DNA from: Bacteroidaceae bacterium
Lineage (GTDB): Bacteria; Bacteroidota; Bacteroidia; Bacteroidales; Bacteroidaceae
NCBI GenBank assembly: GCA_017619335.1
Contig: JAFZSP010000078.1
Location: forward strand, 26 to 64,025
Length of the DNA: 64,000 nucleotides
Reading direction: 5' to 3'
Both the position numbers and the translations under genes were made by a program. Below the pieces are notes generated by a model. The model did not search any database, was not told the origin of the DNA, and saw only the letters and a program-made list of their open reading frames with translations. Every line of letters starts with the position of its first letter. Position 1 is the stretch's first letter. Positions 2,474 through 14,550 of the stretch are shown here, one piece after another.

Positions 2474-3904
2474 TTACTCGCCCTGCGACTGCTGGAACCC
2501 ATTGACGAGACCCTGCACATATTGCAGCAACTGGCGCACGACGATGATGCTCTGCTGCATCGGCTCGGCGGCGTGGTCAATGATGTTGATGCCGTACTGC
2601 ACAGATTCTGGATCGAGCAAGTCAACAAGCGAGACGTAGCCGTTCTCGTCGGCGAAATTGAAGGCGGGCATCGTCCACCAGTCAACACCGAACTTCTGTG
2701 TGACGAGCTTCATAGGGATGGTCTGATTCACACCCTTGCAGGTCATCTCAGCCTTGATGAGCTGGTTCAACTGCTGGGTGTACTGGTCGATGGTTGCCTC
2801 GTCGGCATAGCGGCGGCGTGCGGAAGCGGAAGCACGTGCCAGTTCCAGTGCCTTTGTCATGTCGCTGATGCTGAGCGTGGTTGTCAGGTCGTCGAGCAGC
2901 GTGAGCTTGGCCTCGTCCAGAGTGCGCGTGGTCATCCAGGCTGTCAGAACGTCGAGGATGGACGACATCGAAGTGAACTTCGACAGGTCGAGGTTGGCCA
3001 GTCCGCCCTCGGCATCCCTGCTCTGCTTCATGGTCAGGTCAACCCTTTTGAGCCCGTTCTGGCTCCAACTGAATGCATATTCGCCCGTATGGTTCACACG
3101 GTCGTTGGCGATAGAGAAGCTGAGCGAGGATTCATCGTGTGTTAATGCCATCTTATTTAAATGGCTATTGACTGTTCCGCTGACGCTAAAGTTGCTGCGG
3201 CCTAACTGGGCATATTCTGAGCCTGCGAGAGGCGTAGCTTGATTCATAAAGGAACCCGTGAATGAATTTTCCCACGAACCAGTGGATTTGTTGGCGATAG
3301 CGAACTGGAATTCAGAGGGGAAGAGGAAGACGATGGCGAGGCCCGGCTGCTGAGTAGAGGCATGTAGGAATTTGATGCTCGTGTCGCCACCGGCCTTCAG
3401 GGTCAGTCTAAGGTTATGGGGTATAAACTGTTGGGTGATGGGGTTGAATCCTTTGACAATGACCTCAAATTCTTCGGCCTCCTCCACGTCGAAGCCTGTT
3501 TCTTCAGCATTCATCGTGAAGCGGTAGTTGAAATCGGTGAAGTCCACCGTGCCGTACATCTTGTAACCCATCGCAGCCAGTTCGCTGCCCTCCTCTACGG
3601 GCTTGATGCTCTGTTTCACCTTCTGCATGAAGGCGTTGAGCACGGCCTTCTCAAACTCAGGGTTGTTGAGCACGCTCTGATTGAAATTCAGGTTCAGGTT
3701 GTTGGCCGCATTCCATGACGTGAAGTTCAGGTTCTCCGCCAGGTCCTTCATCGTGGCGCGGGTATGCTCCACGAACTCCTTGCGGTTCTTCTTGGCCTGC
3801 TCCTGGGCGGGGTTGTCATCGTTGTCCGACGAGCACGATGTCAATACACTTGCGCCGTTTATGGTGAGGATGGCGGCGAGCACCCAATTGAAAAGCTTTT
3901 TCAT
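2474..3904 (-). CDS. Putative surface-exposed lipoprotein, paralog 2 (unknown function)
   Basis: 476-aa ORF with lipobox VLTSC followed by SSDNDDNP. The last 111 residues differ from paralog 1 at only 3 positions, while the core is strongly diverged. Confidence 0.75.
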   Translation of the reverse strand: MKKLFNWVLAAILTINGASVLTSCSSDNDDNPAQEQAKKNRKEFVEHTRATMKDLAENLNFTSWNAANNLNLNFNQSVLNNPEFEKAVLNAFMQKVKQSIKPVEEGSELAAMGYKMYGTVDFTDFNYRFTMNAEETGFDVEEAEEFEVIVKGFNPITQQFIPHNLRLTLKAGGDTSIKFLHASTQQPGLAIVFLFPSEFQFAIANKSTGSWENSFTGSFMNQATPLAGSEYAQLGRSNFSVSGTVNSHLNKMALTHDESSLSFSIANDRVNHTGEYAFSWSQNGLKRVDLTMKQSRDAEGGLANLDLSKFTSMSSILDVLTAWMTTRTLDEAKLTLLDDLTTTLSISDMTKALELARASASARRRYADEATIDQYTQQLNQLIKAEMTCKGVNQTIPMKLVTQKFGVDWWTMPAFNFADENGYVSLVDLLDPESVQYGINIIDHAAEPMQQSIIVVRQLLQYVQGLVNGFQQSQGE

Positions 3905-3921: not shown

Positions 3922-4560
3922 TTATCCAATATACTGCATGATGATGTCAGCCATTTCCTCCTCGGTCTTGCCATCGGCAGAGATGACGAGCTGGTAGTTG
4001 CGGGTGTCATAGCGCGAGGTGCCGGTGTACTTCTTCACGTAGTTCTCGCGCATTTTGTCCACGCGTTCGATGGTCTTGCGGGCCTCGTCCTCGGTCATGT
4101 TCTGCTTGCGGGCCACGCGTTCCACGCGGTAGTCCATCGAGGCCTGAATGAGAATGCTCAGGTGGTTGGGATGGTCGCGGAACACGTGGAAACCGCTGCG
4201 ACCGGCCACGACGCACGACTTCTCCTCGGCAATGCTTTTCAGAATCTCAGTTTCAGTTTTGAACATCTCGTCGGTGGTCAGCAGGTCGGGTTCGTCGCCC
4301 TTCTGCGGCAGGTAGTAGTTCATACCTATGCCTGAGTCTATCTTCAGTATGCGCTCCACGTCAGCCCACCAACTGTGCTTGCGGCCCTTCAGCCGTTCAA
4401 TCTCTGCGGTGGTGAGGTTATACTTCTCCTGCAGGGCCTTGATGACGGCCTTGTCGTAGAAAGGCACGCCTAACTTCTCTGACAACAGGCGGCCAACGGT
4501 ACGTCCGCCGCTTCCTAATTCACGGTTAATCGTGATTACAAATTTCTTGTCCAGGTTCAT
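3922..4560 (-). CDS. Cytidylate kinase-like family protein
   Basis: Start placed at MNLDKKFVITINRELGSGGRTVG (P-loop-like GSGGR). The length (~212 aa) and sequence style match the cytidylate-kinase-like (AAA_18/Cytidylate_kin2) family. The longer ORF-track start at 4629 runs into the promoter repeat. Confidence 0.6.
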   Translation of the reverse strand: MNLDKKFVITINRELGSGGRTVGRLLSEKLGVPFYDKAVIKALQEKYNLTTAEIERLKGRKHSWWADVERILKIDSGIGMNYYLPQKGDEPDLLTTDEMFKTETEILKSIAEEKSCVVAGRSGFHVFRDHPNHLSILIQASMDYRVERVARKQNMTEDEARKTIERVDKMRENYVKKYTGTSRYDTRNYQLVISADGKTEEEMADIIMQYIG

Positions 4561-4710: not shown

Positions 4711-5841
4711 TTATAATGTGATGACGTAAGGATTCGGCTTGCCTGTCAGACCGAACTGGCGGTCTGGTTGATCGGCCTCCAAGCTGTAGCGCCGCAACTC
4801 CATCATGTCGTAGTGGCCGTTGCCATTGGTGTCGGTGAAAGTAATGACTGAGGCGCGTCCCAGTTTCAGATAGCCGGCATTGGCGTAGGTGAAGTTAAGC
4901 GGACAACGCACCACACCGGTGATGCTGTCGCCCTGAATATCGATGCTGTCGCCTGCGGTCAGCAGATAGCTATACTGGTCAAGGCTGTCACCATGTTCCT
5001 CCAGCGTGTGATTATGTCCCCAGAGCACCAGCACGTCGTGGGTCTGAGCAGCGGCGGTCAGAGCCTTGTACCATGTCATGGCTCCAACATTGTCGCCACG
5101 GGTGGCGTGCAGGGGCACGTGGCTCATCACCACGATAGGGTCGCTGTCGGCAATTGCGGTCACCCACTGGGTAAAGCTGCGTGCAGCCGACTCTGCCGAG
5201 ATGCCATAGCGGTCGGCCTGATCGATACCGTTGTAGCCCATCTGCTTCGGTGCTCCGCCTCCAGGGGGAGGCGGTGGTGCGAGGCTGTCGCCCTGTTCAG
5301 GCTGTGGTGGACGGATGCTGTCGTTCTGCTCTTCTGGATGTTCCTGATAGTAACGGATGGCTGCGGTGGTAGCCGAATCGGTGTCGTACACCATCTGTAC
5401 GTAGCTGATGCCGTAGGTGTAGTAGCCGTCGCTGCGACGTGGTCCGCTGTAGAAGGCATCGTAGCCCTCGGCGCAGTTGTTGTCGTGCGAGCCGTATGTC
5501 ATCATCACCCGGGTGTTGAGCGGATTAACTATCGCATATACCTCATCGTAAATGTCTCTGATGGAGAATCCCGGGGTCATATCGCTCATGCCGCCCACGT
5601 AGTCGCCACCTAGCAACACGGTCTGCGGACGGATGCCTCTGCCAGCCACGGCCCGCGCCAGCATCGCCGTCAGGTTATTGCCTTTGCCCGTCTCGTGGCG
5701 GTCGGTTGCCACGAAGAGCGTTGTGCTGTAGCCCGCGCTGCCGCCACTCGGATTATCTGTATTGTCCGTACAGGAGGTCATCCACGACATGCCGCAGAAA
5801 GTCAGGATGGCGGCAAGCATCCAATTAAAAATCTTTCTCAT
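4711..5841 (-). CDS. Calcineurin-like metallophosphoesterase lipoprotein
   Basis: Lipobox MTSC followed by TDNTDNP. Metallophosphoesterase motifs are read by eye: DRH, GGDYVGG, GSHDN and WGHNH. There is a Pro/Gly-rich insert (APPPPPGGGAP). Confidence 0.7.
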   Translation of the reverse strand: MRKIFNWMLAAILTFCGMSWMTSCTDNTDNPSGGSAGYSTTLFVATDRHETGKGNNLTAMLARAVAGRGIRPQTVLLGGDYVGGMSDMTPGFSIRDIYDEVYAIVNPLNTRVMMTYGSHDNNCAEGYDAFYSGPRRSDGYYTYGISYVQMVYDTDSATTAAIRYYQEHPEEQNDSIRPPQPEQGDSLAPPPPPGGGAPKQMGYNGIDQADRYGISAESAARSFTQWVTAIADSDPIVVMSHVPLHATRGDNVGAMTWYKALTAAAQTHDVLVLWGHNHTLEEHGDSLDQYSYLLTAGDSIDIQGDSITGVVRCPLNFTYANAGYLKLGRASVITFTDTNGNGHYDMMELRRYSLEADQPDRQFGLTGKPNPYVITL

Positions 5842-5865
5842 AGTCTGTTATTTATATGATCAGTT

Positions 5866-6459
5866 TCACTCGGAAGCCTCGCTTGGGGGAAACACTTGAT
5901 TGATGAGTTTTTCAAACTCCTTGTAGGCGAAGGTGTCGCGGAGTTCACTGAGCGCATCGGCCAGTCCCCGGTAGTGCCACTCGTGGTCTTTGGGGTCTTT
6001 GGCGTGGAAGAGGTTCCACAGGGCATCGCCCTGCTGGGCATAGTCGCGGGCGATGGCACGCATATTCGAGAGCTTGTCTCCGAGAGCAACTATCTTGGCG
6101 TCGTGGGAAGCACGGGTCAGACGATCAATGGCAGCCTGCTTGCGGGCGTGCCAACTGTCCTCGGCGGTTAAACCGTCAAGCACGATGTCGCTCTCCGAGG
6201 CCACGAGCGAGGCGATGCGGTTGCCGAATTCTTCACGTATCTGCTCCACTGTCGTATCTGTGTCCTCCACGGTGTCGTGCAGGGCTGCGGCGGCCAGCAG
6301 TTCCTGGTCGCGGGTCATCGTGGCCACGATTTCCACAGCTTCCATCGGATGGACGATATAGGGAAAACCCTTGCCTCGGCGCTCTGTCCCGGCATGGGCG
6401 CGAACCGCAAAGATGATGGCGCGGTCCAACAGTGTGGTGTCTAAGGGTCGGTTTGCCAT
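5866..6459 (-). CDS. HD-domain (p)ppGpp-hydrolase-like protein (small alarmone hydrolase, Mesh1/SpoT-hydrolase type)
   Basis: 197 aa. AHAGTERRGKGFPYIVHPMEAVEIV ... AALHDTVEDT matches the RelA/SpoT hydrolase HD signature. No synthetase or regulatory domains are present. Confidence 0.8.
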   Translation of the reverse strand: MANRPLDTTLLDRAIIFAVRAHAGTERRGKGFPYIVHPMEAVEIVATMTRDQELLAAAALHDTVEDTDTTVEQIREEFGNRIASLVASESDIVLDGLTAEDSWHARKQAAIDRLTRASHDAKIVALGDKLSNMRAIARDYAQQGDALWNLFHAKDPKDHEWHYRGLADALSELRDTFAYKEFEKLINQVFPPSEASE

Positions 6460-6460
6460 T

Positions 6461-7339
6461 CTATTCCAAATATTTCTCCTTCAACTGTTGTTGCTCTTTC
6501 TTCGAGAAACCCAACTGATTCTCTATGTACCCTGACAATGAGCCATACTTCTGGTCAATCAGGTAGAGCGCTGCCTCGAAGTTCTCGCGGCTCACGCCGA
6601 CCATAGCACGAATAAAGGCAATGGCCTCCTCTGAACCGTCTTTTCCTTGGACTTTGGCTGTCAATGCTTCCACCTGACGGGCGTAACTCTGGTTGGAGAG
6701 GTCGAAGTCCTCAACGATGGTCTCACGGCTGGCACCGAGGGCTGCCAGGAGGAAGGTCGATGCCCATCCGGCACGGTCCTTGCCCTGTGAACAGTGCCAG
6801 AGCACACCGCCCTTGGCATTCAACACACCACGAAGGAACTCGCCGTAATACTGCTGCGCCGTAGAGTCGGTTACGATAGCTGGATAGAGTTGTCGGGCCA
6901 TAGTCTGCGCCTTGGGGTCGAAGGCATACTTCATCAGCACGGCCAGCATGTCCCGCGTGTCCATATTGGTTGTGTCTGCTCGGCTGGAGGAGAATCCCTG
7001 AATGAATGCCTGAGGCAAAGTTGAGAGGTGGGTGTAGCTCACCCCGTCAATGATACGGTCGGGGGCTGCATTGGCCTCGGCCTCGAAACGGAAGTCGAAC
7101 ACGTCAGTCAGATGATACTTCTCCTTCAGTAGAGCCACGTCGCTGTCGGTAGCCTTCGAGAGGTTTCCGCTGCGGACAAGCATTCCCGTGCGTATCACCT
7201 TTCCATCCTTCATGACGAGACTGCCCATGTCGCGTGCATTCTCAATCTCTTCATAGGCGATGGCACGTTGCGAATTTGCTACTTGTGCAGAGAATAACAT
7301 CATGACTATCAATAGAATAAAGGATTGCTTTGTCGTCAT
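6461..7339 (-). CDS. Secreted protein-tyrosine/dual-specificity phosphatase family protein (CX5R)
   Basis: N-terminal signal peptide. Active-site loop HCSQGKDRAG (C-X5-R). A 4-bp overlap with the upstream gene and a 1-nt gap to the downstream gene indicate an operon. Confidence 0.75.
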   Translation of the reverse strand: MTTKQSFILLIVMMLFSAQVANSQRAIAYEEIENARDMGSLVMKDGKVIRTGMLVRSGNLSKATDSDVALLKEKYHLTDVFDFRFEAEANAAPDRIIDGVSYTHLSTLPQAFIQGFSSSRADTTNMDTRDMLAVLMKYAFDPKAQTMARQLYPAIVTDSTAQQYYGEFLRGVLNAKGGVLWHCSQGKDRAGWASTFLLAALGASRETIVEDFDLSNQSYARQVEALTAKVQGKDGSEEAIAFIRAMVGVSRENFEAALYLIDQKYGSLSGYIENQLGFSKKEQQQLKEKYLE

Positions 7340-8181
7340 CTTGGTAAGGCATTGTCTAATCGTTGAATAATAAACTCACTCATGGGCCGCTTGCCATCAG
7401 TGAGTTTGCTCACAAAGAAGGTCATCTTGAGAAAGACGAAAGGCTGCAGTTTTTGCACCTCTGCATCCAGCGCTTCTTGAGAGTCGGTGCCATAATAGGC
7501 CTTAGCAAAAGCTGCCCAGTGGGCTCTCAGCGTCGCATTGTCCAGATGGAAGATGTTGTCGGCACGTTCTGCACTCAAGAAGTTTGCCGAATAGTACATC
7601 ATGCCCAAGTCCCATTCGGGCACGCCGTAAGCAAAGTCGCCTACGTCTATCCAAAGGTCGCGCTGTCCGTCGGTGATGATATTGCCGATGTGCAGGTCGC
7701 CATGCAGACAGGTGGGCGTAGAGGGAACGGTGTTCATAAAACGATTGATGCGCGCCCTGAGTTCGTCAGTAAGATTAGAAATCTTATCAATCCATTGCAT
7801 CACAAGCTCTTTCATATCTGGCAGTCGTGTCGTATCAGCAGGAGTTTGGTGTATCTGCTTGGCCAGCACGGCGAAACGCTCAGACAGCGGCACCAACTTG
7901 TCGGGCTCCTGCGAGATGATGCGGGTGAACGAGCGTTTGTGCTGAATCAGTTCATACTCGGCGCCGAAACGCTCGCCGTCGGTAACCAGACGGATGGGCT
8001 TCGGTGTGGGCAGTCCGCTCTCGTAGACTATCTGGCTGATGCGGAACTCGCGAATAGCATTGTCGGCAGTCACGCTGGGCATGAAGAGTTTGGCCAGCGT
8101 CTTGCCGTCCTTGTGGTTATAGGAAAGGGCTGTTCCGCCCTCGCCAGTCTGGATATAATCATCCAAATTAATGCTTTCCAT
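7336..8181 (-). CDS. Aminoglycoside-phosphotransferase-like (APH/choline-kinase fold) kinase
   Basis: Brenner-type catalytic motif LHGDLHIGN followed by the DVGDF (DxG) motif. 281 aa. Confidence 0.7.
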   Translation of the reverse strand: MESINLDDYIQTGEGGTALSYNHKDGKTLAKLFMPSVTADNAIREFRISQIVYESGLPTPKPIRLVTDGERFGAEYELIQHKRSFTRIISQEPDKLVPLSERFAVLAKQIHQTPADTTRLPDMKELVMQWIDKISNLTDELRARINRFMNTVPSTPTCLHGDLHIGNIITDGQRDLWIDVGDFAYGVPEWDLGMMYYSANFLSAERADNIFHLDNATLRAHWAAFAKAYYGTDSQEALDAEVQKLQPFVFLKMTFFVSKLTDGKRPMSEFIIQRLDNALPR

Positions 8182-8207
8182 ACTATTATTATGAAAATAG
8201 GGGTTCT

Positions 8208-9278
8208 TTATCTTTTTTTCTGCATAAACGGCAGCGTCTTAGCCTGCTCCATCATCATATCTGCCACGATACCGTTGGCATCACTTTCTCCATTAATGAG
8301 GTCGTAGAGCGACTTCAGGCCATCGCGTCCTCCGTCGTGCTTCAGCACATAGACCAGGCAGAGATACTGGAGAGCTGTGTTTGAAGAGAGGATGTCAAGG
8401 TCGGTGATGGCCAGTTGAGAAAGTGCCAACTGATAGGCATCTTCGCTGTTCTCGTCGATGAAGTGCTGCACCTGTCCGAGCGTCTCCATCCCGAATGACT
8501 CCAAAACCGGCAGATAAGACATCACCGATACAGGCCATATCTCGGCCTGATTGACGGCAGCGATACGCTTATTCAAACGGTCAAAGGGGTGCAGGTCAAG
8601 ATAGTTGCGGAACGAGTCACGCGAGAGTGGAACATCGTCAAGCTTGCCGCTCTTTACCAGTGCCAGTGTCTGGCGGCGGTAGTCGGTGAGAACTGTACGC
8701 AGGCGGCTGAACTCATCGTCCATCAGTTCCATCATGCCAGCCAGACGGTTGAACTGCCGCAGATAGACGTCAGGAATCTTCACATCGCCCTTGTAACCCG
8801 TGTCGTGTTCAATCGTGGACCACACATGCTGCAGAGCTGTACGCATCTGCAGTTCGAAGCGTGGACCACCGGTTTTTAGTCGGCAGATATAGTGCAGGGA
8901 GTTGTAGCCGAAGGAGTCCAGCTTGTGCAGTTTACGCTTATCGACGCTCTCTTGCCAGTCGATGTCGAAGATTCGTTTGGCGATGGCCGCCACCTTATCG
9001 ACCTCGTCGGTATAGAAAGTGATGACGCGCAAGCCCACGAGGTCGGTGATATCATCTATACTCTTGTATTTCGCACCCTTCAGCTCCAGTTTTCCCGTGA
9101 GCGACTTCTCGGTCTTCACCCGATGCTCCATGGCCGTGATATAGATACCCTGTTCGAGCAGAGCATGGCGCAGTTGGCTGCTGGCGTCATCAGCCAACTG
9201 CTGTAGCGTAGGGAGCAGTTCGCGGTACTGCCTTAGCAGCATCTCGCCGTGCGCATCCAATCTAACTTGATTATCCAT
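8208..9278 (-). CDS. RelA/SpoT-domain small alarmone synthetase with long C-terminal extension
   Basis: Synthetase motifs DLVGLRVITFY, GYNSLHYICRL and ELQMRTALQHVWSTIEHDTGYK lie in the first ~180 aa. The remaining ~170 aa has no motif I recognise. Confidence 0.8.
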   Translation of the reverse strand: MDNQVRLDAHGEMLLRQYRELLPTLQQLADDASSQLRHALLEQGIYITAMEHRVKTEKSLTGKLELKGAKYKSIDDITDLVGLRVITFYTDEVDKVAAIAKRIFDIDWQESVDKRKLHKLDSFGYNSLHYICRLKTGGPRFELQMRTALQHVWSTIEHDTGYKGDVKIPDVYLRQFNRLAGMMELMDDEFSRLRTVLTDYRRQTLALVKSGKLDDVPLSRDSFRNYLDLHPFDRLNKRIAAVNQAEIWPVSVMSYLPVLESFGMETLGQVQHFIDENSEDAYQLALSQLAITDLDILSSNTALQYLCLVYVLKHDGGRDGLKSLYDLINGESDANGIVADMMMEQAKTLPFMQKKR

Positions 9279-9282
9279 CTAC

Positions 9283-9591
9283 TTACATAAACTCAAAGAT
9301 GTTGCTGAAACCTGTGATGGTAAAGATACCACGGACGGTATCGTTGATACCCTTGATATAGACATGTCCGCCTTTGGCCTGGGCGTTCTGCAGGATGCCA
9401 AGGAATATGCGCAGACCGGCTGAAGAGATATATGCCAGGTCTGTGCAATCGATGATAATGTCTTTACCCTCCACGTCGTTCAGTGGACTCATTGCCTTTT
9501 CAGTGTCTGCGGCAGCTGCGGTGTCGAGACTGCCCTCCAGAATGGCAACCATGTTGCCGTCGATTTCTTGAATCGTTGTTTTCATACTCAA
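9283..9591 (-). CDS. STAS-domain anti-sigma-factor antagonist (SpoIIAA/RsbV-like)
   Basis: 102 aa. The conserved phosphorylation-site context is DLAYISSAGLRIF. Confidence 0.85.
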   Translation of the reverse strand: MSMKTTIQEIDGNMVAILEGSLDTAAAADTEKAMSPLNDVEGKDIIIDCTDLAYISSAGLRIFLGILQNAQAKGGHVYIKGINDTVRGIFTITGFSNIFEFM

Positions 9592-9612
9592 TAATGAATG
9601 ATGAATTGTGAA

Positions 9613-11982
9613 TTATGAATTAAGGATTATTTTCTTCCTCAGTGTCAGCACATTGAGGTTGTCCATGCGCTCGTAGTTGATGGAGTCCATATTCTGTCGC
9701 ATGATGTGGATGCCCAAACCGCCGATGTTGCGCTGATTGGCAGAAAGCGTAGTATCGACTTCTGCCTGAACGGTGGGGTCGAAGGGTTTACCGCTGTCGA
9801 TAATGGTAAACTTCAGTCGCACATCATTCGAGGCTGCCTCTATGGTCACGTCACCATGCTGTCCAGGCGGGTAGGCGTATTTCATCACGTTGACCACAGC
9901 TTCCTCCACAGCCACTTTAACCTGCATGGTGACCAACTCTTCAAATCCCACGGTTTGGCAGACCTCTTCGACAAAGTCGTTCAGCCGTGGCACCTCTTGC
10001 AGGTCACAGGACAACACAAGGCTCTTGCGCATCCTGACATCACTCTGCTGCTTGATATACTGTATAGCCATCATGGTCAAATCATCGCTCTGTTCGGCAT
10101 CACCTACAAACTGATGGACGGCCTCGGTCATCCGTGCGATGAGTTGACGGGGCTCCTGTTGTTGCTGGGAGAGTGCCTGAGTAGCCACATCGTTGACGCG
10201 CTCCATCTGGAACAGTGCAGATTCGGCGTCCATAGCCTCGGTCAGTCCGTCTGTGAAGAGGAAGATGGTGGTGCCTGTGAAGATATGCGCCTCCTGCAAG
10301 GAATACTTCCACGTGGGCATAAAGCCAACGGGGATATTTGAATCGCAGGGCAGTTCGCCTACGCCTGCTCCGACGAGCAGCGGGGCATCGTGGCCGGCAT
10401 TGCAGTAGCGCAAACGTCCAGTTGGCAGGTCGAGCACACCGACAAAGAGAGTAACGAACATGTGGTTCTTGTTCATGTCGGCTATCGTCTTGTTCATGAT
10501 GGTCACAATACGGTCTGGCATCGACTCGTGGGCCGACACGGTTCGGAATGTTGAGCGGGTCACAGCCATGAAGAGCGAAGCGGGCACGCCCTTGCCCGAG
10601 ACGTCACCGATGCAGAAAAAGAGTTTCTCATCGCGGAAATAGAAGTCGAACAGGTCGCCGCCCACCTCCTTGGCTGGGGTCAGCGAGGCAAAGAGCTGCA
10701 CGTCGTCGCGGTCGTCCCGTGTTGGGAACTTTTCAGGCAGCATGCCCATCTGTATGGCGCTGGCAATGCGGAGGTCGCGTTCTATTGAAGCCTTCTGGGA
10801 GGTGGTGTTCTTCAGTTCTTCGATGTATTTTACCAGTGACTGCTGCATGTTCCCGAACGAGTGGCTTAACTGACCTATCTCATCGACACGCTGGAAGTCT
10901 GGCAACGGAGCGTCGAACTTTCCTGAGGCGATGGCCTCAGCCTCCTTAGCCAGTCGATGCAGAGGTTTCAACTCACGGGTGATGATGCGGATGAACAGGT
11001 AGAGCATCAGCAGCAGACCCACGGTGACGATGGTCATAATTGTGCGACGCAGACGGTCAAAGCCGCTGAAGATGTCGCTCTCTGGACAGACGATGGCCAT
11101 CGAGCAGCCTGTCTGGCCGAGGGGCTTGTAGAACACATAGCTGTCCTTGCTACCGATGTTCATGTGTTTCATGCCCTCCTCTCCATGCTGCATGGCATAG
11201 CCCAAAGCGGTCAGGGCCGTGTCGGGCTGCTCCAGCGTATGTGTGAAGATGGTCTGTCGGGTGATTTTCGTCGTGTCGGGATGTACGAAATAGGTGCCAC
11301 CACGACCTATCATGATGCTGTAGGAATTGGGATAGGGCTTCACGGCTGAGATCGTCTGCGAAAGCCAGTTCAGTGAGAGACTGATGTTAATGACACCTAT
11401 CAGCTGGCCCTGATTGTCCGTAAGGGTCTGACAGTAGCTGGTCACCATCTCGCTGGTGTTCGTTGCCACGTCAAGGTCCATATACGGTTCCGTCCAGCAT
11501 GGTTTTTCCAGTAGCTGGGGCATTAGATACCAGTCTGCAAAGAAATACTGGTAGCTATCGCTGCCGCCCTGTATGGTACGGATTGAGTCACCATCGTGTT
11601 TGGTATAGGCAGAGAAGTAGCGGCCCTTGTCCTTGAAGTAGTAAGGCTCAAAAGCGATGGAACAGTTGTAGAAGTCGGGATTATTCAGCAGCAAGCCCCG
11701 GCTATAGACGAACATGGAGTCGGCCTGTTCGGAATGTCGCAGCACGAGCCATTTGGTCATGTTCGAGGCAACCTCCACACGGTTCAGGATGCCCTCCACA
11801 CGCAGGGAGGTCTTGTCCAGAATTTGCGTGGCACGGCTGACAGCCTCCTGACGCACAGCCTCACGAGCCTGATAGAAAAGGAAGCCGAGGGCGACATTGA
11901 AGATGATGGCTGCAAAGAACACCACCCACAGGCTGACCCTGACGGATAGTTTATGACGGAAATATGCGATGATCTTTTTCAT
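9613..11982 (-). CDS. Membrane sensor: periplasmic Cache-like domain + HAMP + PP2C/SpoIIE phosphatase fused to RsbW/SpoIIAB-like HATPase kinase domain
   Basis: 789 aa with two TM segments flanking a ~270-aa extracytoplasmic region. PP2C motifs GGDLFDF, IGDVSGKG, LFTDGLTEA and DDLTMMAI. The C-terminal ~130 aa (VKVAVEEAVVNVMKYAY ... GGLGIHIMRQ) resembles an anti-sigma kinase. Confidence 0.8.
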   Translation of the reverse strand: MKKIIAYFRHKLSVRVSLWVVFFAAIIFNVALGFLFYQAREAVRQEAVSRATQILDKTSLRVEGILNRVEVASNMTKWLVLRHSEQADSMFVYSRGLLLNNPDFYNCSIAFEPYYFKDKGRYFSAYTKHDGDSIRTIQGGSDSYQYFFADWYLMPQLLEKPCWTEPYMDLDVATNTSEMVTSYCQTLTDNQGQLIGVINISLSLNWLSQTISAVKPYPNSYSIMIGRGGTYFVHPDTTKITRQTIFTHTLEQPDTALTALGYAMQHGEEGMKHMNIGSKDSYVFYKPLGQTGCSMAIVCPESDIFSGFDRLRRTIMTIVTVGLLLMLYLFIRIITRELKPLHRLAKEAEAIASGKFDAPLPDFQRVDEIGQLSHSFGNMQQSLVKYIEELKNTTSQKASIERDLRIASAIQMGMLPEKFPTRDDRDDVQLFASLTPAKEVGGDLFDFYFRDEKLFFCIGDVSGKGVPASLFMAVTRSTFRTVSAHESMPDRIVTIMNKTIADMNKNHMFVTLFVGVLDLPTGRLRYCNAGHDAPLLVGAGVGELPCDSNIPVGFMPTWKYSLQEAHIFTGTTIFLFTDGLTEAMDAESALFQMERVNDVATQALSQQQQEPRQLIARMTEAVHQFVGDAEQSDDLTMMAIQYIKQQSDVRMRKSLVLSCDLQEVPRLNDFVEEVCQTVGFEELVTMQVKVAVEEAVVNVMKYAYPPGQHGDVTIEAASNDVRLKFTIIDSGKPFDPTVQAEVDTTLSANQRNIGGLGIHIMRQNMDSINYERMDNLNVLTLRKKIILNS

Positions 11983-12015
11983 TTGATATTACGATATTAC
12001 GTTATAACTATAACG

Positions 12016-12966
12016 TCAATTCGACAACTCCTCATAGGTTATCTCGCGGCTCAGCATCTGGTTCTCCACCATCAGTCGGCTGGCCTGCCGTACCATATCG
12101 GGACGCAGCCGGAACTCTCGTTTCTTAGATTCACGGTCCACCTGCAGACGCAGCACCTCCTTGAGCATCAGCCGCTGCATCACACGGTTGGTGGCAATGT
12201 GGTTCTTATCGACATACTGCATCACGATGTCCAATGTCTCGTCGGGATGTTGGGCTGCCCACTCCCAGCCCTTGCGGCTGGCCTGAGCAAAACGGCGAGC
12301 CTGCTCCTTATGTTGGACATAATAGTCGCGGGTCATATATACACCATCCTCCTGCACATTGTAGCCGTGGTCGCAGAAGCGATAGACGTTCTTGTCGGTC
12401 ATCTGGATGCCCGCCTGCACCAACTGGTAGTACTCGTTGTAGCTCATGGCCAGCGTGGCGTCGAGGGCTCCGGCCACGAACAGGTTGACATTCTGGGCGA
12501 AGCGAATCCACTCATAGTCCAAATGGTCTTTGATGCTCATGCAGATGGCAAGCTGTCCAAAGCCCACGCTCCAGATACCCACCTTGGCTCCCTTTTGCAT
12601 CAGCGGGTCTTTTCCACGTGCCGAGACGATAACCATCGCATTGTTCATCGATGTCTGCAGGATGTTCACCAACGGTATGCCGCCATCCACAATCTCCAGT
12701 GCCTGACAGAGTTGGAGCGTCGTGGCCTGGCACTGGTTTTGGCTGAGTCGGCTTATGGCAGGCTGCGTGGCAGACGGGTGCTCGATGCGCACCTTCACCC
12801 CCGCCTCACGGTAAAAACCCTTCGCCTCGGCCACGTAGTAGCCCGCGAACTGGGCCTGCGCCGTCCACTGCGGCGTGAATACGATGGTCTCATCCTGCGC
12901 AGACAAAGTATGAGACGTCGCCACCATTGCAATGAATAAGAATAGGTAAACTTTGTGTTTCTTCAT
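12016..12966 (-). CDS. Periplasmic substrate-binding protein, NMT1/THI5-like (ABC-type SBP fold)
   Basis: Start placed at MKKHKVYLFLFIAMV (signal peptide). The size and sequence style fit the nitrate/sulfonate/bicarbonate-type SBP family. No permease or ATPase gene is adjacent. Confidence 0.6.
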   Translation of the reverse strand: MKKHKVYLFLFIAMVATSHTLSAQDETIVFTPQWTAQAQFAGYYVAEAKGFYREAGVKVRIEHPSATQPAISRLSQNQCQATTLQLCQALEIVDGGIPLVNILQTSMNNAMVIVSARGKDPLMQKGAKVGIWSVGFGQLAICMSIKDHLDYEWIRFAQNVNLFVAGALDATLAMSYNEYYQLVQAGIQMTDKNVYRFCDHGYNVQEDGVYMTRDYYVQHKEQARRFAQASRKGWEWAAQHPDETLDIVMQYVDKNHIATNRVMQRLMLKEVLRLQVDRESKKREFRLRPDMVRQASRLMVENQMLSREITYEELSN

Positions 12967-13040
12967 CTGTTCTTGTTGCAACGGCCTCCACTGCCTAATT
13001 CATGATTGATGGTAATTACAAATTTCTTGTCCAGGTTCAT
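12963..13040 (-). pseudogene. Duplicated 5' fragment of the cytidylate-kinase-like gene (25-codon leader ORF)
   Basis: My translation is MNLDKKFVITINHELGSGGRCNKNR*. The first 20 aa match the start of the gene at 4560, differing only at residue 13 (H versus R). Its TGA overlaps the ATG of the SBP gene (ATGA at 12963-12966). Confidence 0.8.
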
Positions 13041-13147
13041 ACTATTATTTATGTTAAATGAGTGAACGCGTAATGGCTTTGTTGTATTTATCTTCAAAAT
13101 ACGGCGCAAATATCGTAAAAAGGATTAAATGAGAAAAGGTTTTTCTG
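12994..13147. repeat. Direct repeat copy 2
   Basis: 13015..13147 is identical to 4535..4667. Confidence 0.9.
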
Positions 13148-13251
13148 TAAAAAATGAAAAGGAAGGGAGGAAAAGGGGGATTTTTAGGGAGAAAAGAGGG
13201 TTTTTCGGCAAAAAAGTGACGAAAGATTATCATACTTTATTGATTATTCTC

Positions 13252-13282: not shown

Positions 13283-14550
13283 ATGAGAACACGTGAAGAA
13301 ATGGAAGCCAAAGGGTTGACGCCCGAGGAGACCAAGCACAGTGGACATCGCCGTGCGCGCTGGCATGACTATGCGCTGCCTGGGGTATATATGCTGACAT
13401 TGATTACCGATGGTCGTCAGCGTGTCTTTGGCGAGGTGGTGGGGCGTTCCCACGCTGCAAGGGGCACGGCGGACTATCCTCACCTGCAACCCTCGACGTT
13501 TGGGCAGAAAGTGCTGGAAGAGGAGGTGAAGAAGATTTCGAAGTACTATCCGATGGTGGAAGTATGGAAGGTGGTGCTGATGCCCGACCACATCCACCTG
13601 CTTGTCTGTGTCCGGGAGCCTCTGCCTGAGGGGAAGCACCTGGGGCTTGTGGTGAGCGGCTTCAAGGCGGGATGCTCGCAGGCGTGGTGGCGGTGGCAGG
13701 ACGAGCAGCGGGCAGGCCTCGGAAACGGAGGCGGAGGAAACGCCCTCGGGAGAACCCTCGGGAACGGTAACGGGGAGGGAAGAACCCTCGGGAACGGTAA
13801 TGGGAAGGGGAGAACCCTCGCGAACGGTCATGGGGAGGGGAGGACCCACGGGTACAGGGACGCAGGGAATCTCCCAAACGTGGTCACAGCTCCGGAAAGC
13901 GCCCCCCACCCTGTTCCAGTGCCCGAGGGTTCTCCCGAGGGTGAAAAAGAGCGCCGCCCGGTCCTGTTTGAACCCGGTTACCACGACCGCATCGTCCGAG
14001 ATGCAGAGATGCTCGGGAACATTCGCCGTTACATGGACGAGAACCCCTTTCGCGCCAAACTCCGCTCCGAAATCCCCCACCTGATGCAACGACGCCTGCA
14101 TCTCTGGATTCATGACCGCGAATATGCGGCCTTTGGGAACCTCTTCCTCCTGAAGAATCCCGAGCGGATCCAGGTCTTCTTTCATCGTAAGAACAAAGCT
14201 GGCATCCCCACGCACCTCACCCCGAATACGCCACGGATCGGGATCTCCTACTCAGACGCGCCGAAGAAGGAGCGGTGCTCGTAACGCCCGGCGTCTCCAA
14301 GGGTGAACTGGGTGTAGTCAAAGGTGCCCTGTCGCTCCATCTGCCACTCATCCTCCTTCAGAAAGAGCCCATCTCCGAATACTGGAAACCCGCCCAAAGC
14401 CGCTTCTACGCCTGTGCCGCCGGCCATCTTCTCATCCTCTCCCCTTGGCAGTTGGACGGTGATTCTGATTATGCCCGCTTCCATAACCTCAATGACCTGG
14501 CTCGCGACATCTGCCGCGCCACAGACACCCGACTATTAGGAATGCAGTAG
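13283..14550 (+). pseudogene. HUH/Y1 (IS200-like / REP-associated tyrosine transposase-like) gene with C-terminal extension, interrupted by a frameshift near 14206-14230
   Basis: HUH motif PDHIHLLV, Tyr motif GYHDRIV and YMDENP. The reading frame ends at 14284. A second frame is open from 14191 and continues naturally (EYATDRDLLLRRAEEGAVLVTPGVSKGE...) to 14550. C4 runs at 14206-14209 and 14220-14223 are candidate slip sites. Confidence 0.65.
13751..13850 (+). repeat. In-frame 30-bp tandem repeat (about 3.3 copies) inside the transposase-like gene
   Basis: The unit agaaccctcgggaacggtaacggggaggga encodes RTLGNGNGEG-type decapeptides. It lies between the HUH and Tyr motifs. Confidence 0.85.

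Follow-up and report, generated by a model that had tools for sequence, protein, structure and literature searches.

The window analyzed here, a 64 kb stretch of contig JAFZSP010000078.1, carries an operon in which the gene for a small alarmone synthetase (SAS) lies directly downstream of the genes for a STAS protein and for a membrane sensor that combines a PP2C phosphatase with an RsbW-type kinase. We consider it probable that these genes encode a sigma-less partner-switching pathway which has the SAS as its output. The domains of this set are present with intact motifs, their linkage recurs in three phyla, and several of them are found fused to one another. An initial annotation of this DNA had proposed that an extracytoplasmic signal is relayed, through the phosphorylation state of the STAS protein, to alarmone synthesis, and our analysis supports such a link by comparative gene linkage and gene fusions rather than by experiment.

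The operon is that of a rumen Prevotella, and its SAS reaches 94% identity with proteins encoded in rumen Prevotellaceae metagenome-assembled genomes. About 170 related loci were compared in total. The close set comprised 80 genome loci with a SAS 62-94% identical to that of the window (tblastn, clustering of open reading frames [ORFs] and profile searches). Informative loci numbered 70 in the window's clade and 22 in a sister clade from rumen metagenomes (SAS 51-58% identical).

Composition of the operon

The operon spans positions 4711-12966 of the window and consists of eight genes on the minus strand, which are, in the order of transcription:

12016-12966 (-): NMT1/THI5-like periplasmic solute-binding protein, with an ATG start and a signal peptide (Pfam NMT1, 3e-26)
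9613-11982 (-): membrane sensor, 789 aa (Pfam MCP-like_PDC_1/dCache; HAMP; SpoIIE, 9.5e-46; HATPase_c_2, 4.3e-24)
9283-9591 (-): STAS protein of the anti-sigma antagonist type, 102 aa, single domain (Pfam STAS, 4.3e-17; NCBIfam ant_ant_sig above cut-off)
8208-9278 (-): SAS, 356 aa (Pfam RelA_SpoT, 1.5e-18)
7336-8181 (-): APH-fold kinase of the TIGR02172 family (Pfam APH, 3.5e-17; NCBIfam TIGR02172, 278 bits against a cut-off of 228 bits)
6461-7339 (-): CX5R tyrosine phosphatase (PTP), PtpB-like (Pfam Y_phosphatase3, 3.2e-59)
5866-6459 (-): small alarmone hydrolase (SAH) of the HD_4, Mesh1/SAH type (Pfam HD_4, 2.5e-22)
4711-5841 (-): metallophosphoesterase lipoprotein (Pfam Metallophos, 8.8e-9)

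Intergenic gaps in the same order are 33, 21, 4, 26, -4, 1, and 24 nt. All eight ORFs of the initial annotation, which had described minus-strand genes separated by gaps of -4 to 33 nt, were recovered, and its domain assignment for each was confirmed by a Pfam match exceeding the gathering score, with NCBIfam agreeing for the APH and STAS proteins. Catalytic motifs are intact in the operon proteins, as judged from the sequences and from alignments. The reported absence of a sigma factor from the module was also borne out, as a Pfam scan of the main ORFs between 1 and 21.9 kb found no sigma-factor domain, and hence none within ~10 kb. No second copy of any operon component is present elsewhere in the window.

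The sensor, STAS, and NMT1 proteins

The sensor is arranged as a transmembrane segment, a periplasmic dCache domain, a second transmembrane segment, a HAMP domain, a PP2C (SpoIIE) phosphatase and an RsbW-type serine kinase (HATPase_c_2). Motifs that could be read directly from it are GGDLFDF, GDVSGKG, TDGLTEA, DDLTM, the N-box EEAVVN, DSGKPF, and GGLGIH, and the metal-binding aspartate motifs of the PP2C domain are present. The closest PDB entry to its cytoplasmic half was Mycobacterium tuberculosis Rv1364c (3ke6, 1.6e-14), followed by RssB, RsbW (6m36, 5.3e-7), and SiaA; SiaA was also the top NCBIfam match of the PP2C part (6.6e-24), at a score far under the cut-off.

The STAS protein aligns with RsbV and SpoIIAA, and the second serine of its motif YISSAGLR aligns with Ser56 of RsbV. 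In the form YISS[SA]GLR, the motif is shared without variation by 91 STAS proteins linked to a SAS; the initial annotation had noted a phosphorylatable serine in ISSAGL. Judged by sequence, the module therefore has the parts of a partner switch, namely a STAS protein with the conserved serine, a HATPase_c_2 kinase with N, G1, and G2 boxes, and a SpoIIE phosphatase; a cognate sigma factor is encoded neither with the module in the window nor in the Clostridia and probable Treponema loci described below.

The NMT1 protein is the presumed co-sensor of the Cache protein. Its gene is co-oriented within 5 kb of the SAS gene in 39/70 loci of the window's clade, always beside the sensor and directly upstream of it, and is absent from the other clades. 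There are no transporter genes beside it in the window.

The synthetase and the accompanying enzymes

The SAS matches Pfam RelA_SpoT with 67.5 bits (cut-off 27 bits), and its motifs RVK, DLVGLR, GYNSLH, ELQMRT, and WSTIEH align with those of RelQ and RelP. When it was checked for missing catalytic residues, every motif proved to be kept: across 89 members of the family 20 columns are invariant, including RxK, DxxGxR, FGYxSxH, and ExQ, as well as a family-specific DKR motif ahead of GYxSxH. The RelQ/RelP-like pyrophosphokinase domain occupies residues ~45-200 and is followed by a conserved helical domain at ~205-356; RelA_SpoT was the sole domain detected by Pfam, with no hydrolase, TGS, or ACT domain. 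In an AlphaFold2 model built from the 89-sequence alignment (pLDDT 94.3), residues ~1-200 superpose on RelQ/RelP with a TM-score of ~0.8 (Foldseek). The C-terminal ~150 residues modeled alone are again helical (pLDDT 95), with no match in Pfam and no matching fold in the PDB (best E-value 2.4). We considered whether this domain mimics a sigma-factor region recognized by RsbW-type kinases and rejected the idea, as the best PDB match had an E-value of 2.4 and a TM-score below 0.35.

The SAS family comprises 655 representative clusters at E<=1e-30, its members being typically 345-380 aa long and 30-40% identical, and the alignment continues through the C-terminal extension. Its profile matches RelQ/RelP, which make (p)ppGpp, with an E-value of ~1e-25, the toxic CapRel with 4e-7, and FaRel2 with 7e-3, and does not detect Tas1; as tested by profile against these three, the SAS belongs to none of the known toxic subfamilies (CapRel, FaRel, FaRel2, PhRel, PhRel2, Tas1). 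The closeness of the profile to RelQ/RelP is suggestive of (p)ppGpp or (p)ppApp as the product.

The hydrolase is a single HD_4 domain with the motif LHDTVED, and its closest PDB entries are the solved SAHs 7qoe (1.2e-22), 4yf1, and 7qoc, then Mesh1. The APH kinase has the motifs HGDLHIGN and DVGD and gave no match in the PDB search. The PTP has the motif HCSQGKDR (CX5R) and matches 8dhi and M. tuberculosis PtpB (1ywf) in the PDB. Its description as a secreted enzyme holds in the window's clade, in which 8/8 members have a signal peptide, and fails in the sister clade, where none of 21 members does so and the protein begins right at the catalytic domain (loci L120-L163). The metallophosphoesterase has no homolog in the 80 genome loci, which excludes it from the conserved set and makes it a probable passenger.

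Conservation of the linkage in close relatives

In 44/70 loci of the window's clade, a STAS gene is found co-oriented with the SAS gene at a distance of 100 nt or less. Gaps between STAS and SAS genes are of 4-12 nt, or the genes overlap. Taking all related loci together, 94 STAS matches occur within 5 kb of a SAS gene and 3 in 705 kb of more distant flanks, and the clustering of STAS near SAS is far beyond chance. Within 4 kb of the SAS gene, a co-oriented PP2C domain is encoded in 42/70 loci and an RsbW-like kinase in 39/70. Within 5 kb, the HD gene is found co-oriented in 46/70 loci, APH in 10/70, and PTP in 6/70.

The order of these genes is variable in the window's clade. The HD gene may stand ahead of NMT1 or directly before or after the SAS gene, the APH-PTP pair ahead of HD-NMT1 or after SAS, and an SLC13/CitMHS permease gene at times comes between sensor and STAS. 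One locus (L020) has the order HD, stand-alone kinase (149 aa), STAS, SAS, and PP2C-kinase sensor, the SAS gene thus lying between STAS and sensor, and some loci have STAS and SAS, with or without HD, and no sensor nearby.

Some loci (L005, L011, L164) encode, downstream of SAS and a few kb away from the first set, another PP2C(-kinase) sensor together with another STAS protein; in L011, a gene for an SLC13/CitMHS permease with TrkA_C domains separates the two sensor/STAS sets.

Distant relatives and gene fusions

In the sister clade, the usual order is Cache-SpoIIE-HATPase_c_2 sensor, STAS, SAS, APH, HD, PTP. In 19/22 of these loci, STAS is co-oriented with SAS at a distance of no more than 100 nt; PP2C and kinase are each present in 19/22, HD in 21/22, PTP in 17/22, and NMT1 in 0/22. 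APH, found within 5 kb of SAS in 21/22, is typically directly downstream of it.

More distant members of the family retain the association. In a clade whose SAS is 41-43% identical to that of the window, and whose members are named Clostridia, Eubacteriales, or Lachnospiraceae in NCBI records, the order is SAS, HD_4, STAS, and then a 5TMR_LYT-SpoIIE-HATPase_c_2 sensor. A further locus, with a SAS of 35% identity, has the order SAS, STAS, SpoIIE, HATPase_c_2; this locus is probably from Treponema, as the 90%-identity cluster to which its release factor belongs bears the name Treponema sp. The synteny of partner-switch genes with the SAS and SAH genes, when checked, was accordingly found to be conserved in relatives, including those with SAS homologs of 35-43% identity. 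With the sensor-PP2C, SAS pairs of loci L095 and L129, at least seven gene arrangements link the same parts (those of the window's clade, L020, the sister clade, the Clostridia, the Treponema-like locus, L095/L129, and the loci without a sensor). That the sensor modules vary while the SAS is constant is as expected of an output.

Three gene fusions tie the kinase to the SAS, the SAS to the hydrolase, and the STAS protein to the APH kinase. The first, HATPase_c_2::RelA_SpoT (521 aa), occurs in Prevotella in three 90%-identity clusters that are mutually 81-82% identical; the fused genes (L086 8001-9566; L167 2282-3847) stand alone, in housekeeping surroundings of Prevotella-like contigs, between MFS (major facilitator superfamily) transporter and peptidase genes, with no STAS or PP2C near them in these two loci. 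The second, RelA_SpoT::HD_4 (~530 aa), occurs in the Clostridia clade (P0161, P0432, P0436). The third, STAS::APH (390 aa), was found in a Clostridia locus (L171 2738-3910; L172 2738-3910); its STAS half has the sequence LEYISSSGLR, and its APH half is 27% identical to the APH kinase of the window (E 2e-25) and of the same TIGR02172 family.

The locus with the STAS::APH fusion also has two SAS-HD_4 pairs, a second HD_4 gene, a dCMP deaminase gene, and a gene for a flavodoxin-like protein. Directly upstream of the Clostridia SAS, a gene encodes a conserved 318-319 aa protein that matches no family in Pfam or NCBIfam (L168 3002-3961, L170 5022-5978, L171 5028-5984) and that is not homologous to the NMT1 protein. 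In three loci (L082-L084), a SAS homolog of 32% identity is encoded beside a HEPN/Polbeta-HTH pair and a DnaB-like gene, a mobile or defence-like context unlike that of the window.

Operon boundary and flanking genes

The eight-gene block is bracketed by a direct repeat of 206 nt, the downstream copy of which belongs to an intact gene encoding a cytidylate-kinase-like protein:

12981-13186 (-): upstream copy of the repeat, comprising the putative promoter and leader of a cytidylate-kinase-like gene and its first ~20 codons
4501-4706 (-): downstream copy of the repeat, in which the putative promoter and the leader are followed by the beginning of an intact cytidylate-kinase-like gene
3922-4560 (-): cytidylate-kinase-like P-loop protein (Pfam Cytidylate_kin2, 2.3e-46)

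The two copies are 8480 nt apart and 91% identical overall; 140 nt are 100% identical, and the adjoining coding part diverges mostly at synonymous positions. In the upstream copy, a 25-codon remnant ORF persists (12963-13040; MNLDKKFVITINHELGSGGRCNKNR*), the TGA of which overlaps the ATG of NMT1. As the repeat is present at both sites, the operon and the cytidylate-kinase-like gene are behind the same leader. The repeat suggests a shared promoter and the shuffling of cassettes by recombination between cytidylate-kinase-like paralogs, and such recombination could plausibly account for the variable gene order in relatives.

The cytidylate-kinase-like gene is itself a recurrent member of the set: it is co-oriented within 5 kb of SAS in 17/70 loci of the window's clade, full copies lie just upstream of (HD-)NMT1 in five loci (L004, L006, L018, L042, L043), and one cluster of these proteins (C5) is represented in 25 loci, co-oriented beside SAS, HD, or NMT1. 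The gene set proposed in the initial annotation is hence correct in that all eight genes are present, and requires revision in that the metallophosphoesterase is absent from related loci and the cytidylate-kinase-like gene had been omitted. PADLOC defence models gave only a weak pVip-kinase match for the cytidylate-kinase-like protein.

The other main ORFs scanned between 1 and 21.9 kb are housekeeping genes (UPRT, MnmG, APRT, UvrC, Dtd, DeoC). Directly downstream of the cytidylate-kinase-like gene are two tandem genes (972-2417 and 2474-3904, minus strand) for lipoproteins of ~480 aa with no Pfam family, which are probably paralogs; they grouped together in a first ORF clustering and not in a second. 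On the other side of the operon, and pointing away from it, is an ORF of 333 aa (13283-14284, plus strand) with a faint resemblance to IS200-like Y1 transposases (E 0.026, around PDHIHLL); it is interrupted by a tandem repeat (13748-13852) of 3.5 copies of a 30-nt unit, encoding GNG.GEGRTL units.

Proposed pathway and alternative explanations

In the pathway that follows, we infer all protein contacts, the active phospho-form, the ligand, the product, and the part that the APH, PTP, and cytidylate-kinase-like proteins may play. The membrane protein would sense a periplasmic ligand via its dCache domain, the ligand probably being presented by the orphan NMT1-like protein encoded just upstream. 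The HAMP domain would then shift the balance between the two cytoplasmic enzymes of the sensor, the PP2C phosphatase and the RsbW-type serine kinase, which together would set the phosphorylation of the STAS protein at the serine of YISSAGLR. One phospho-form of the STAS protein, directly and/or by competing for the kinase domain, would switch the SAS encoded 4 nt downstream. The SAS would make a nucleotide 3'-pyrophosphate, for which (p)ppGpp is the likeliest candidate and (p)ppApp a possible one, and the HD-type hydrolase would remove this product and reset the signal. The TIGR02172 APH-fold kinase may be a further conserved component acting on or with the STAS protein.

Two routes to the SAS can be envisaged. 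Direct contact between STAS protein and SAS is favored because STAS carries the signal to the target in fused kinase/phosphatase systems of the HsbR type, including to a diguanylate cyclase (PMC5085249), and because STAS-SAS pairs occur without a nearby sensor. The kinase::SAS fusion favors the classical scheme, where the output stays bound to the kinase and is freed once STAS displaces it. We also incline, with rather less assurance than for the pathway itself, to the broader view that in at least Bacteroidota and Clostridia, and probably Spirochaetota, a partner switch with interchangeable sensors directly gates a RelQ-like SAS paired with its own hydrolase and APH kinase, and that such a pathway has not been described previously.

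Several observations weigh against this interpretation. In 26/70 loci of the window's clade, and in ~15 distant singleton lineages, which have no neighboring gene in common, the SAS is encoded with no partner-switch gene nearby, so the enzyme can stand alone or its regulators are encoded elsewhere; in L095 and L129, the PP2C sensor is without a detectable STAS protein or kinase, and these loci fit the model poorly. The kinase::SAS fusion and the tight adjacency of STAS and SAS indicate different direct partners of the SAS, and the adjacency of SAS and HD also fits a toxin-antitoxin reading. The C-terminal domain of the SAS occurs throughout the family, in members with and without a linked STAS gene, and the PTP is in different compartments in the two clades. 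Searches for transcription signals added nothing in support: a sigma-70 scan gave 9 promoter-like sites against 7.9 expected, with a model that is uninformative for Bacteroidota, no exact match to the Bacteroidota -7 motif TAnnTTTG was found upstream of the operon, and the terminator scan was likewise uninformative, with 4 sites against 9.9 expected and none of note inside the eight-gene block.

It is conceivable, and in our judgment unlikely, that the core of the locus is a toxic SAS with a hydrolase antitoxin (type IV toxSAS-like, possibly anti-phage), the partner-switch genes gating the toxin or merely being its neighbors. To our knowledge, partner-switch genes have not been reported for toxSAS. 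The linkage of SAS and HD is the most widespread of all (46/70 and 21/22 loci), with the genes often overlapping, and a SAS encoded beside a SAH able to neutralize its product is what is seen in the FaRel-ATfaRel system, where the SAH is a known antitoxin (PMC7229694). The shuffled gene order among close relatives, the distant homolog beside a HEPN/Polbeta pair, and a weak PADLOC match of the SAS to the candidate system PDC-S33 (5.7e-13, domain only) point the same way. However, the family profile is ~18 orders of magnitude nearer to the housekeeping-type RelQ/RelP than to CapRel/FaRel2, with Tas1 undetected, and there is no family-wide conserved bicistronic antitoxin: many members have neither an adjacent hydrolase nor any conserved small partner, and a search for an antitoxin-like one beside the SAS-alone homologs found none common to the lineages. 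Moreover, the loci are in housekeeping contexts and not in defence islands or prophages, and the SAS::HD fusions look like bifunctional Rel/SpoT enzymes, not like toxin-antitoxin pairs.

A shade less probable still is that the partner switch acts elsewhere, for example on a distal sigma factor, and that SAS and HD are only co-transcribed with it in the same stress regulon with no control at the protein level. STAS proteins can have distal targets, the evidence here is of gene linkage only, and 26/70 close loci have the SAS without a partner switch. This is difficult to reconcile with the kinase::SAS fusion in three clusters, with the position of the SAS gene between STAS and PP2C-kinase in L020, with gaps between STAS and SAS of a few nucleotides or none, and with a linkage that survives changes of gene order, sensor type, and phylum. 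It is very unlikely that the operon, with its kinases, phosphatases, pyrophosphokinase, and binding protein, serves the metabolic salvage of phosphate or nucleotides and that its RelA_SpoT enzyme pyrophosphorylates a substrate other than an alarmone precursor, the partner switch being a generic regulator, for, despite recurrent neighbors that include cytidylate-kinase-like, SLC13/CitMHS permease, ABC amino-acid transporter, APH kinase, PTP, and metallophosphoesterase genes, and despite the salvage enzymes UPRT, APRT, and DeoC encoded in the flanks of the window, the catalytic motifs of the SAS are those of RelQ/RelP, the paired hydrolase is of the SAH/Mesh1 type, and the transporter and metallophosphoesterase genes are sporadic whereas STAS, PP2C, kinase, and HD are constant partners.

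Comparison with known systems

The principle of a sigma-less switch acting on a second-messenger synthetase is already known for cyclic di-GMP (c-di-GMP), and the new part of the proposed SAS pathway is an alarmone synthetase as output. In Pseudomonas aeruginosa, HsbR unites a PP2C phosphatase with an RsbW-type kinase in a single chain and sets the phospho-state of HsbA; a phosphorelay supplies its input by way of a receiver domain, and FlgM and sigma factors are further targets of HsbA. An anti-anti-sigma factor of the STAS type, HsbA binds the diguanylate cyclase HsbD (PMC5085249, PMC6482189). The likeness is that a STAS protein is tied to a nucleotide second-messenger synthetase, and we propose that the sensor of the window works like HsbR. 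However, HsbD is a GGDEF protein making c-di-GMP and not a pyrophosphokinase of the RelA/SpoT homolog (RSH) family, there is no paired hydrolase, and homology with the window is at the level of domains only.

In the SiaABCD system of the same species, SiaA is a membrane HAMP-PP2C phosphatase and SiaB is a kinase that is not of the RsbW-type HATPase_c_2 class. The four genes are co-transcribed (PMC7278518), and SiaC, the state of which is set by the SiaABC threonine-phosphorylation pathway, binds and activates the synthetase SiaD (PMC8457831, PMC7647112). This system differs in that its output is a diguanylate cyclase, SiaC is phosphorylated on threonine (PMC7647112), and there is no Cache domain, binding protein, or hydrolase. 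The system of the window would work like SiaABCD and HsbR-HsbA-HsbD without being a member of either, there being no GGDEF domain in the operon by Pfam. M. tuberculosis Rv1364c resembles the sensor in that a PP2C phosphatase is fused to an RsbW-like kinase. In Rv1364c, the STAS domain is part of the chain as well, and the target is SigF.

The SAS of the window shares its catalytic fold and motifs with RelQ and RelP of Firmicutes (SAS1/SAS2), which are of ~210 aa; its family differs in adding the conserved domain of ~150 aa, the DKR signature, and dedicated signaling genes. SAS enzymes have been described as being without C-terminal sensory domains and as controlled by transcription and by pppGpp or RNA allostery (2019 review, PMC6606846). 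Full-text literature searches to mid-2026 yielded no paper that connects an RSH enzyme with modules of the STAS, PP2C, or RsbW type, in keeping with the initial annotation, which knew of no description of this wiring.

Significance

SAS enzymes are thought to be controlled mainly by transcription and allostery, and why bacteria have several of them is an open question. If the proposed pathway is correct, a small alarmone synthetase would for the first time be seen to have its own dedicated input from post-translational signal transduction, and an RSH enzyme would join the short list of partner-switch outputs other than sigma factors. The pathway would also offer a defined and testable gene set (sensor, STAS, SAS, SAH, and APH kinase) and a working context for three uncharacterized items, the 150-aa C-terminal domain of the SAS, the TIGR02172 kinases, and the Cytidylate_kin2 paralogs. 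For gut and rumen anaerobes such as Prevotella and Clostridia, it would provide a ribosome-independent route by which extracellular cues reach alarmone levels.

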